A DNA stretch of 2,892 nt. Origin: Escherichia coli (GTDB lineage Bacteria > Pseudomonadota > Gammaproteobacteria > Enterobacterales > Enterobacteriaceae). Below the pieces are notes generated by a model. That model was given only the letters and a program-made list of their open reading frames with translations, had not been told where the DNA came from and did not search any database. The position numbers and the translations under genes were made by a program. Where the stretch lies: assembly GCF_003334765.1 (NCBI RefSeq), contig NZ_QOWT01000072.1; one strand, 5' to 3'. Shown here piece by piece: positions 1,273-1,812 of this stretch. How positions within the stretch are numbered: position 1 is the first letter of the stretch; every line of letters starts with the position of its first letter.

Positions 1273-1812
1273 ATGGAGAATGTTATTTTAATTGACCATA
1301 ATGATTGTGAAACGGGGATTGCCGAAAAATTATATACCCACAAAAAAGGTATTTTACATCGGGCTGTTTCTGTTTATATATGTAATAGCGATGGAAAATT
1401 ATTGTTACAGCAAAGAGCACTTGGAAAATATCATTCTCCCGGCCTTTGGAGCAATACCTCTTGTACACACCCCTTCCCGGGAGAATCGAATTTATCTGCA
1501 GCTAACAGAAGATTAAGGGAGGAAATGGGGATAGAATGCCCCTTATCTAAACTATTAAAGATCTACTATAATGTTTATGTCGGCGGTGATTTAACAGAAC
1601 ATGAGATTGCACATATTTTCTATGGTATTAGTGATGATGAACCAGATTTAAATAGTTTGGAAGCTATGAGTTATAAATATGTTTCCTTGACAGAGTTAAG
1701 TTCTGAAATAAAATTCAATAACGATGCTTTTTCTCGTTGGTTCGTCTATTGTTTCCCATATATTAAAAATGCTTTCCTGAATGAGAGTAATTATACCAAT
1801 TTATTGATTTAG
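1273..1812 (+). CDS. idi: Isopentenyl-diphosphate delta-isomerase, type 1 (Nudix family) homologue, 179 aa
   Basis: Aligns by eye along its whole length with E. coli Idi: ENVILIDHNDCETGIAEKLYTHKKGILHRAVSVYICNSDGKLLLQQRALGKYHSPGLWSNTSCTHPFPGESNLSAANRRLREEMGIE versus [88 protein letters not shown]. Residues equivalent to H25, H32, C67, H69, E114, E116 and W161 are present (H23, H29, C64, H66, E109, E111, W156). AGGGG lies 8 nt upstream of the ATG. The last 5-8 codons and the stop lie inside the IS1-like terminus. Confidence 0.85.
   Translation: MENVILIDHNDCETGIAEKLYTHKKGILHRAVSVYICNSDGKLLLQQRALGKYHSPGLWSNTSCTHPFPGESNLSAANRRLREEMGIECPLSKLLKIYYNVYVGGDLTEHEIAHIFYGISDDEPDLNSLEAMSYKYVSLTELSSEIKFNNDAFSRWFVYCFPYIKNAFLNESNYTNLLI

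Follow-up and report, generated by a model that had tools for sequence, protein, structure and literature searches.

When a gene on a virulence plasmid runs into the debris of an insertion sequence (IS), it must be asked how much of that gene, and of any operon to which it belonged, has been lost. The question is raised here by idi, an isopentenyl-diphosphate isomerase (IDI) gene at positions 1273-1812 of a 2892-base stretch of Escherichia coli DNA, which was analysed in full and is referred to below as the window. A preliminary description of this sequence had proposed that the enzyme is probably active, that its final codons and stop come from an IS1-like terminus, and that the insertion had replaced the native 3′ end together with whatever lay downstream. 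Our analysis leads us to favour, with considerable confidence, the reading that 1273-1812 is an intact idi of an aggregative-adherence (pAA) plasmid, in which native codons 1-171 continue into an orphan IS1 left-end tail and stop, and that only one or two native codons were lost.

The window is 99.9% identical to plasmid p140_MLI109, and a block covering at least 80% of it is present in 58 of 5426 complete E. coli genomes, each time on a pAA virulence plasmid; the carriers include 55989, the O104:H4 outbreak plasmids and pAA2 of 042, and identity to 042 and 55989 ranges from 96 to 100% per segment. It is the AggR-regulated ORF3/ORF4(idi) block of enteroaggregative E. coli (EAEC) pAA plasmids, and its two long open reading frames (ORFs) are the EAEC marker genes ORF3 (EC042_pAA003, 241-1269) and ORF4, or idi (EC042_pAA004, 1273-1812). 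One survey recorded these genes in 89% of typical EAEC isolates (PMC10100739), and both are implicated in biofilm formation (PMC6392122); according to a passage in PMC10725161 that cites Morin 2013, both are activated by AggR and their mutants display raised sensitivity to polymyxin and defensin.

The plasmid idi gene and its product

The idi gene (ORF4, pAA004; plus strand) encodes a type-1 IDI of 179 amino acids (aa). Its native part comprises codons 1-171 (1273-1785), whereas IS1-like DNA encodes the remaining codons 172-179 and the stop (1786-1812, SNYTNLLI*). A global alignment with Idi of E. coli K-12 reproduced exactly the seven catalytic residue pairs of the preliminary description (H23/H25, H29/H32, C64/C67, H66/H69, E109/E114, E111/E116 and W156/W161) and added six substrate- or metal-binding pairs (K19/K21, R48/R51, K52/K55, R80/R83, E84/E87 and Y99/Y104). 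In E. coli numbering, the octahedral metal site (His25, His32, His69, Glu114 and Glu116) is complete, catalytic Cys67 and Glu116 are present together with Tyr104 and Trp161, and the diphosphate and Mg2+ ligands K21, R51, K55, R83 and E87 are all kept. Both NCBIfam IDI equivalog models are matched above their cut-offs (NF002995, 139.3 bits against 127; TIGR02150, 109.2 bits against 105.8), E. coli Idi structures were matched by phmmer at E = 1.5e-20, and the ratio of non-synonymous to synonymous substitution rates (dN/dS) of the native part against the nearest relative (L006) is 0.18; idi is under purifying selection. The full residue set, the two cut-offs passed and this ratio lend weight to the earlier suggestion of an active enzyme, and the plasmid protein is, as far as its sequence allows this to be judged, very probably an intact and active type-1 (Nudix-fold) isomerase of isopentenyl diphosphate (IPP) and dimethylallyl diphosphate (DMAPP). 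Its ORF3-linked relatives are 72% (L006) and 54-56% (Salmonella) identical to it, and the best matches outside this group reach about 50-55%, those with a named source being mostly of Bacteroidota type.

A second E. coli idi allele family (P0002, on L009-L012) was also observed, with 89% aa identity and an equivalent IS1-derived tail (...NLSI). Its substitutions are clustered in the first 76 codons (H54Y, P56L, G57V), and its nucleotide identity, about 97% in ORF3 and the remainder of idi, drops to 90.8% across 1273-1500; P0002 may be a recombinant or a decaying allele. A truncated idi variant of 119 aa (P0004) also exists.

An IS1-like terminus at the 3′ end of idi

The region was aligned with IS1A of K-12 and with two other IS1-family copies, which delimited an orphan left-terminal fragment of about 48 bp at 1786-1833 (plus strand), secure over 1796-1833 and ambiguous over 1786-1795. 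The secure part corresponds to IS1A positions 11-48 with 33 of 38 identities; over the whole fragment (IS1A positions 1-48) 38 of 48 positions are identical, and an IS1-family variant reaches 39 of 47. The best local alignment of the whole of IS1 with the whole window also falls at 1786-1833, with a score of 51 that none of 300 dinucleotide-preserving shuffles attained (24.1 ± 2.2, maximum 32; z about 12). When positions 1770-1900 were compared by BLAST with 28 Gb of E. coli genomes, full-length self matches were obtained in 58 genomes, along with 71 partial matches at 83-89.5% identity (E 2e-4 to 7e-4); the two partial matches that were inspected are both placed at a left terminus, 8 nucleotides (nt) ahead of an IS1-family transposase gene, and a like pattern of IS1-end matches was seen in Shigella and Klebsiella plasmids. 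The terminal inverted-repeat sequence of IS1 (GGTGATGCTGCCAACTTACTGAT...) was recognised in the window, its outer 10 nt (5/10) excepted. Codon 172 starts at 1786, so that SNYTNLLI* is encoded by IS1-like DNA, and the idi stop TAG at 1810-1812 is IS1 positions 25-27. An origin of the final codons and the TAG in an IS1-like terminus is upheld by these data for the last five to eight codons.

The extent of the IS1-like DNA, which had been placed from about 1786 to about 1888, needed correction on both sides. The left boundary is secure from 1796, with an ambiguous junction before it, while the right boundary did not hold: beyond 1833 only 22 of 45 positions agree (1834-1878 against IS1 59-103), and from 1877 the DNA is an IS256-family remnant. 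The best offset for 1834-1878 is colinear, with p about 0.04 when colinear offsets only are considered and 0.24 for any offset, and an extension of the homology over this interval was dropped as non-significant unless colinearity is assumed. Positions 1834-1876, to which no strand is assigned, are treated as a spacer, possibly a decayed IS1 continuation (positions 59-103 after a 10-nt deletion). A complete IS1 carries the transposase genes insA/insB with a -1 frameshift, two inverted repeats and an 8-11 bp target duplication. Because no insA or insB coding remnant was found in the window by tblastn, 1786-1833 is a fragment of IS1 and not an element; it is also the sole IS1-like stretch of the window, in which no second one (right inverted repeat) was found.

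The fragment is 13-21% diverged from all IS1 copies found in E. coli, Shigella and Klebsiella, and 8 of its 10 differences from IS1A, as read from the alignment, are G/C to A/T, a bias that would fit either prolonged decay in AT-rich DNA or an origin from it. Given that most changes are of this kind and that no closer terminus was found in 100,044 species-representative genomes, the fragment would be an old copy that has decayed or would come from a relative of IS1 not yet sampled. Among the 042, 55989 and P0002-type lineages the IS1-like part is 95.8-100% identical with the same junction, and the order idi/IS1-like/IS256-like is common to all three; since these lineages differ by 3-5% elsewhere, the scar is older than the diversification of pAA. 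No mention of an IS1-derived end of idi was found in the literature searched.

Extent of the loss at the idi 3′ end

The closest IDI homologue outside pAA (P0003, 173 aa, 72% identity) ends ...CFPYVQNSIISQCK* (...SQCK) and is located on the metagenomic contigs L006-L008 (7.8-66 kb). An IncFII replicon is present on the longest of these, and their backbone resembles Citrobacter/Salmonella plasmids (Enterobacteriaceae plasmid); the Salmonella enterica homologues (172 aa) end ...INHLVCLK* and ...INKIFSED*. These termini differ from that of the window, and no IS1-like DNA follows the idi stop in the closest relatives. The nearest relatives carry 16-17 residues after the conserved Trp, against 15 native and 8 IS-encoded residues in the window, and the replacement therefore took about one or two native codons along with the stop; across 117 homologues the post-Trp tail has a median of 16 residues (range 8-30), with 15 or fewer in 43%. 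The claim that the native 3′ end was replaced is thus correct for these one or two codons and the stop, but no substantial end is missing, 15 native post-Trp residues having been kept. As to the further genes that the operon had been thought to contain, one was indeed found, a peptide gene of 50-52 aa on the upstream side, but none downstream: idi is the last gene of the conserved module in all four independent contexts (L006-8, L015, L016/17 and L018/19), and the DNA 3′ of its stop is unrelated between these four loci.

A further cassette variant (L020/L021) carries the peptide gene and a 341-aa ORF3 that is 77% identical; in L020, the contig that runs beyond ORF3, a transposase-like ORF stands in place of idi directly after ORF3. 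The 3′ side of the cassette has been struck by IS activity more than once.

As we reconstruct it, the idi frame passes from native DNA into some 48 bp that derive from an IS1-family left end and supply the last five to eight residues, (S/N/Y)TNLLI, and the TAG stop. The event, which could have been an insertion or an IS1-mediated adjacent deletion, removed about one or two native codons and the native stop. As the lost piece belongs to a surface tail that is length-variable among IDIs, function should be unaffected, and the chimeric tail is almost certainly without functional cost. The idi gene would already have closed a mobile cassette of three genes (50-aa peptide gene, ORF3, idi), in which IDI would raise the supply of DMAPP/allylic diphosphate for ORF3, and in pAA this cassette would have been rearranged to two convergent AggR-driven units, ORF3-idi and the inverted peptide gene pAA005A.

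Several points weigh against this reconstruction. The outermost 10 nt (1786-1795) match IS1 at only 5 of 10 positions and are about equally like the native 3′ end of L006, so that the junction may lie anywhere in 1786-1796; a closer IS1-family terminus was not found, the 22-mer GTATATGATGGTGCATTTGAGG having no exact match in 100,044 species-representative genomes; the downstream DNA of the relatives is mosaic too, and loss of a gene from all lineages is conceivable; and both the activity of the enzyme and the harmlessness of its chimeric tail are inferred.

Among the alternatives for the idi end, the one that survives best, though we consider it improbable, is that an IS1 insertion, or one of the adjacent deletions for which this element is known, took away a substantial native 3′ end together with at least one downstream operon gene. 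The DNA after 1833 is IS debris, the original pAA sequence 3′ of idi being gone, and no terminator-like site follows idi, both of which would agree with such a loss; yet 15 of the expected 16-17 post-Trp residues are still present, idi is terminal in the four contexts named above with flanks that diverge directly after the stop, and the one additional conserved gene sits upstream. That idi is inactive or decaying, its function abolished by the chimeric tail or by other changes, appears very improbable: the heavy IS debris around the locus, the P0002 substitution cluster and the truncated P0004 might point in that direction, but the window allele keeps all 13 of the functional residues checked and passes both equivalog cut-offs, dN/dS is 0.18, and the gene is present in about 89% of typical EAEC isolates (PMC10100739), with a mutant phenotype reported in the passage of PMC10725161 noted above. 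A chance resemblance to IS1 in AT-rich DNA, with ...YTNLLI* as the native C-terminus, is scarcely credible and effectively refuted, since, for all the shortness of the match (38-48 nt), the poor fit of its first 10 nt and the ends ...SSNLLNH and ...SSNLFNH of two distant homologues (P0008 and P0009), the score of 51 exceeds the shuffle maximum of 32 (0/300), the BLAST matches (E 2e-4 in 28 Gb) fall exactly on IS1 left ends, and the closest relatives have neither the sequence nor the tail.

The upstream peptide gene and the AggR promoters

The additional gene lies at 2315-2467 on the minus strand (EC042_pAA005A, EC042_RS30880) and encodes a peptide of 50 aa, MIDIVTYVMNADFDNIIKIASDMDLSLIKDIVRETQEDINSNGPAWSSWS, which is annotated as a hypothetical protein and is regarded here as a candidate precursor peptide. 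It is described as AggR-activated and of ‘unknown function’ (PMC6392122, PMC5570504), and no link of pAA005A to pAA003/004 is made in the AggR-regulon papers searched. An ORF of 50-52 aa is located directly upstream of ORF3, on the same strand, in every relative found (L006-8 and L015-21; Salmonella enterica, an Enterobacteriaceae plasmid and an E. coli-like contig), the L006 copy being at 8816-8968. The peptide C-terminus PAWSSW(S/A) is invariant, with synonymous changes, and the N-terminal part evolves faster; such a conserved core behind a variable N-terminus looks like the leader/core pattern of a precursor of ribosomally synthesised and post-translationally modified peptides (RiPPs). The 50-aa peptide has no NCBIfam match.

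Two inverted partial copies of the cassette 5′ region are present in the window, copy A with the peptide gene deleted and copy B with an intact one. Copy A consists of a promoter/leader at 111-240 (plus strand), with an AggR-site match ATAATAATATC at 131-141 and a peptide-gene remnant (about 196-240); alignment with L006 and copy B revealed that the peptide ORF beside ORF3 carries an internal deletion of about 100 nt, the remnant ending ...TGGAGCTCAAGGTAATAA just before the ORF3 start. Copy B has its promoter at 2468-2555 (minus strand), with an AggR-site match ATAATAATATC at 2534-2524, and includes an ORF3′ fragment at 2211-2333 (minus strand), namely the first 30-40 or so codons of a second, diverged ORF3 that has lost its native start codon and is cut by an IS256-family end. 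The copies are visible as inverted repeats (111-224 against 2441-2554, 77%; 241-320 against 2239-2318, 80%). That copy B is a recent duplicate of copy A was considered and rejected, the arms being 77-80% identical, which is about the divergence between pAA and L006. The extra gene that the ancestral operon possessed upstream of ORF3 has been deleted beside ORF3 and survives in the inverted copy at 2467-2315.

The AggR site has been defined as WWWWWWWTATC, 21-23 bp upstream of the -10 element, and Table 1 of the same paper lists potential AggR-dependent promoters of EC042_pAA003 and EC042_pAA005A (PMC6392122). Both sites predicted in the window, at 131-141 (plus strand) and 2534-2524 (minus strand), match this pattern and are identical or near-identical to those Table 1 sequences, at the published promoter positions. 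With these as candidate promoters, the two AggR-driven units point towards each other, and no part of the window, the stretch after idi and that between the units included, yielded a terminator-like site.

ORF3 and a possible prenylated peptide

ORF3 (pAA003, plus strand) encodes a protein of 342 aa, annotated as a ‘class 1 isoprenoid biosynthesis enzyme’, which adopts a trans-isoprenyl-diphosphate-synthase (trans-IDS) fold, with MoeN5 among the top fold matches. It has the motifs D107xxxD111 and Q232-DDVLD237-IMED241 and is a candidate peptide prenyltransferase. No sequence-level family was found for it in Pfam (including no match to PF00348), NCBIfam or PDB sequence searches, the family signal being reached by fold and profile-profile methods only. 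The first Asp-rich motif, D107-L-F-V-D111 (DLFVDE), is non-canonical, retaining only the Asp residues at its first and fifth positions (D1 and D5); the second is a complete DDxxD, and Q232-DDVLD is invariant in seven family members. A Gln ahead of the second Asp-rich motif (SARM) occurs in canonical synthases too, IspA among them, and is therefore non-discriminating. The best non-self matches in AFDB50 are a squalene-cyclase-domain fusion and a large number of proteins from Paenibacillus named ‘terpene synthase/polyprenyl synthetase’. When 1.8 billion proteins were searched with a profile, a remote ORF3 family was retrieved and then confirmed by hhalign (probability 99%, E 3e-18), the members of which follow RiPP-like small ORFs, e.g. 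...NNGLPDVCRYSIWC, and one of which is fused to a squalene-hopene-cyclase-like domain. One remote homologue, P0142 (L025/L026), has on one side a leader/core-like ORF of 64 aa (...RYSIWC) and on the other a membrane protein that gives a faint Peptidase_M50 signal, an arrangement typical of RiPP gene clusters.

Tryptophan prenyltransferases of trans-IDS-like type that act on ribosomal peptides have been described in the ComQ/ComX, PalQ/PalX and ChrPC systems (PMC5331326, PMC10853753, PMC13290415), where the first Asp-rich motif serves for the allylic diphosphate and a Gln stands just before the second motif (PMC13290415, PMC5331326). We tentatively propose that pAA005A, ORF3 and idi may constitute an AggR-controlled ribosomal-peptide prenylation system, in which ORF3 would prenylate a Trp of the PAWSSWS core and IDI would supply DMAPP/allylic diphosphate; this is a serious possibility, if still short of a probability. 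A dedicated IDI fits an enzyme that consumes allylic diphosphate. On this reading the proposed system would also occur in Salmonella enterica and on another Enterobacteriaceae plasmid, and its product would be a lipopeptide signal or a surface-active factor. The literature searches found no description of a peptide prenylation system in EAEC.

A competing view, which bears on the cassette proposal only, holds that ORF3 is an ordinary isoprenyl diphosphate synthase or a lipid-acceptor enzyme of the MoeN5 kind, that ORF3 and idi modify the envelope, and that the 50-aa ORF is unrelated or a regulator. This we find doubtful, albeit deserving of real weight: the trans-IDS fold with MoeN5 among the top matches and the complete DDxxD of the second motif would suit it, the fold alone does not separate synthases from IDS-like prenyltransferases, and the reported phenotypes involve envelope-active peptides and biofilm. 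It accords less well with the non-canonical first Asp-rich motif (DLFVDE) and the lack of a PF00348 match, with the strict synteny of the peptide gene across all relatives and the purifying selection on its invariant Trp-rich core, or with remote homologues (hhalign probability 99%) that follow RiPP-like small ORFs and include one squalene-hopene-cyclase-like fusion.

Flanking insertion sequence remnants

The AT-rich module, which starts at 111, has a GC content of 22-37% against 43-49% in the surrounding IS debris. Outside it, the 3′ end of an IS3-family element occupies 1-77 (plus strand), the IS3-like transposase coding sequence (CDS) ending at 47 in the 99.9% identical annotated record; its terminal inverted repeat, as read from the sequence, probably ends at 77. 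It is followed at 78-110 (plus strand) by a 33-nt IS-terminus fragment, presumably IS2-right-end-like, which recurs as a direct repeat at 2667-2700 (78-102 equals 2667-2691 at 100% in a repeat search). On the other side, 2556-2892 (minus strand) is IS debris, comprising IS3-family orfA fragments with an AL1L frameshift pseudoknot, according to the twin-record annotation, and the IS-terminus fragment at 2667-2700. The same IS-terminus fragments (25 nt at 100%) thus stand in direct orientation at both sides of the whole AT-rich block, which suggests that this block lies between two insertions, or remnants, of one IS type. In annotated twin records the neighbours of the block include agg3/agg5 fimbrial genes, astA, aggR, aap and aar, and in 042 it adjoins aatP.

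Farther inside the window, 1877-2234 (plus strand) holds what is left, with frameshifts, of the 3′ part of an IS256-family (IS1414-like) transposase gene (aa 273-402), together with the right end of the element (tblastn E = 7e-14 over 1877-2197). It is 71-76% identical to IS1414-family elements by blastn and is annotated as a frameshifted partial CDS in the twin record. Similarity sets in at residue 273 and is interrupted by a gap of about 20 aa and by several frameshifts. An intact IS1414 carries the embedded EAST1 toxin gene astA immediately before the corresponding point (L027 1229-1342), so that the remnant starts essentially where the astA-bearing part stops, with an overlap of about 10 nt.

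Significance and comparison with known systems

The finding at idi is in itself minor, i.e. a known virulence-plasmid marker gene with a chimeric end of five to eight residues and a borrowed stop, an ordinary IS scar, which nonetheless represents a fixed and datable mark shared by all sequenced pAA lineages. The link between pAA005A, ORF3 and idi is the more interesting result. The ‘missing operon gene’ is the upstream, strictly conserved peptide gene, kept in pAA as the separately transcribed, AggR-activated pAA005A, and the long-unexplained ORF3/ORF4 pair gains a concrete hypothesis, namely that a ComQ/PalQ-like enzyme, served by a dedicated IDI, makes a prenylated peptide. If true, Gram-negative enteric pathogens would gain their first system of this kind, and two widely used EAEC markers as well as an ‘unknown’ ORF of the AggR regulon would receive a function. 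The biofilm and cationic-peptide phenotypes reported for ORF3/ORF4 mutants could then be due to the product of this system.

Compared with IS1, the window retains recognisable left-end positions 1/11-48, including the TAG at 25-27, at 79-87% identity, but it has this terminal fragment only, without insA/insB and without a right end. With the chromosomal Idi of E. coli (PDB 1NFS/1HZT family) the plasmid IDI shares the Nudix fold, all ligands and catalytic residues, and a similar length (179 against 182 aa), whereas it is distant in sequence, plasmid-borne, AT-rich and AggR-regulated, and its last five to eight residues are IS-encoded. Unlike the ComQ, PalQ and ChrPC systems, the proposed enteric system has Gram-negative hosts, lacks a linked histidine kinase and includes a dedicated idi; its peptide gene is physically separated and inverted in pAA, and the second motif of ORF3 is a full DDxxD where ComQ has a pseudo-SARM. 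What it has in common with ComQ/ComX of Bacillus, PalQ/PalX of Paenibacillus and ChrPC, as compared by published descriptions, is a gene for a trans-IDS-fold enzyme beside a gene for a peptide of about 50-60 aa, and a conserved Trp 2-5 residues from the peptide C-terminus; D1 and D5 of the first Asp-rich motif and a Gln directly before the second may be further points of likeness.

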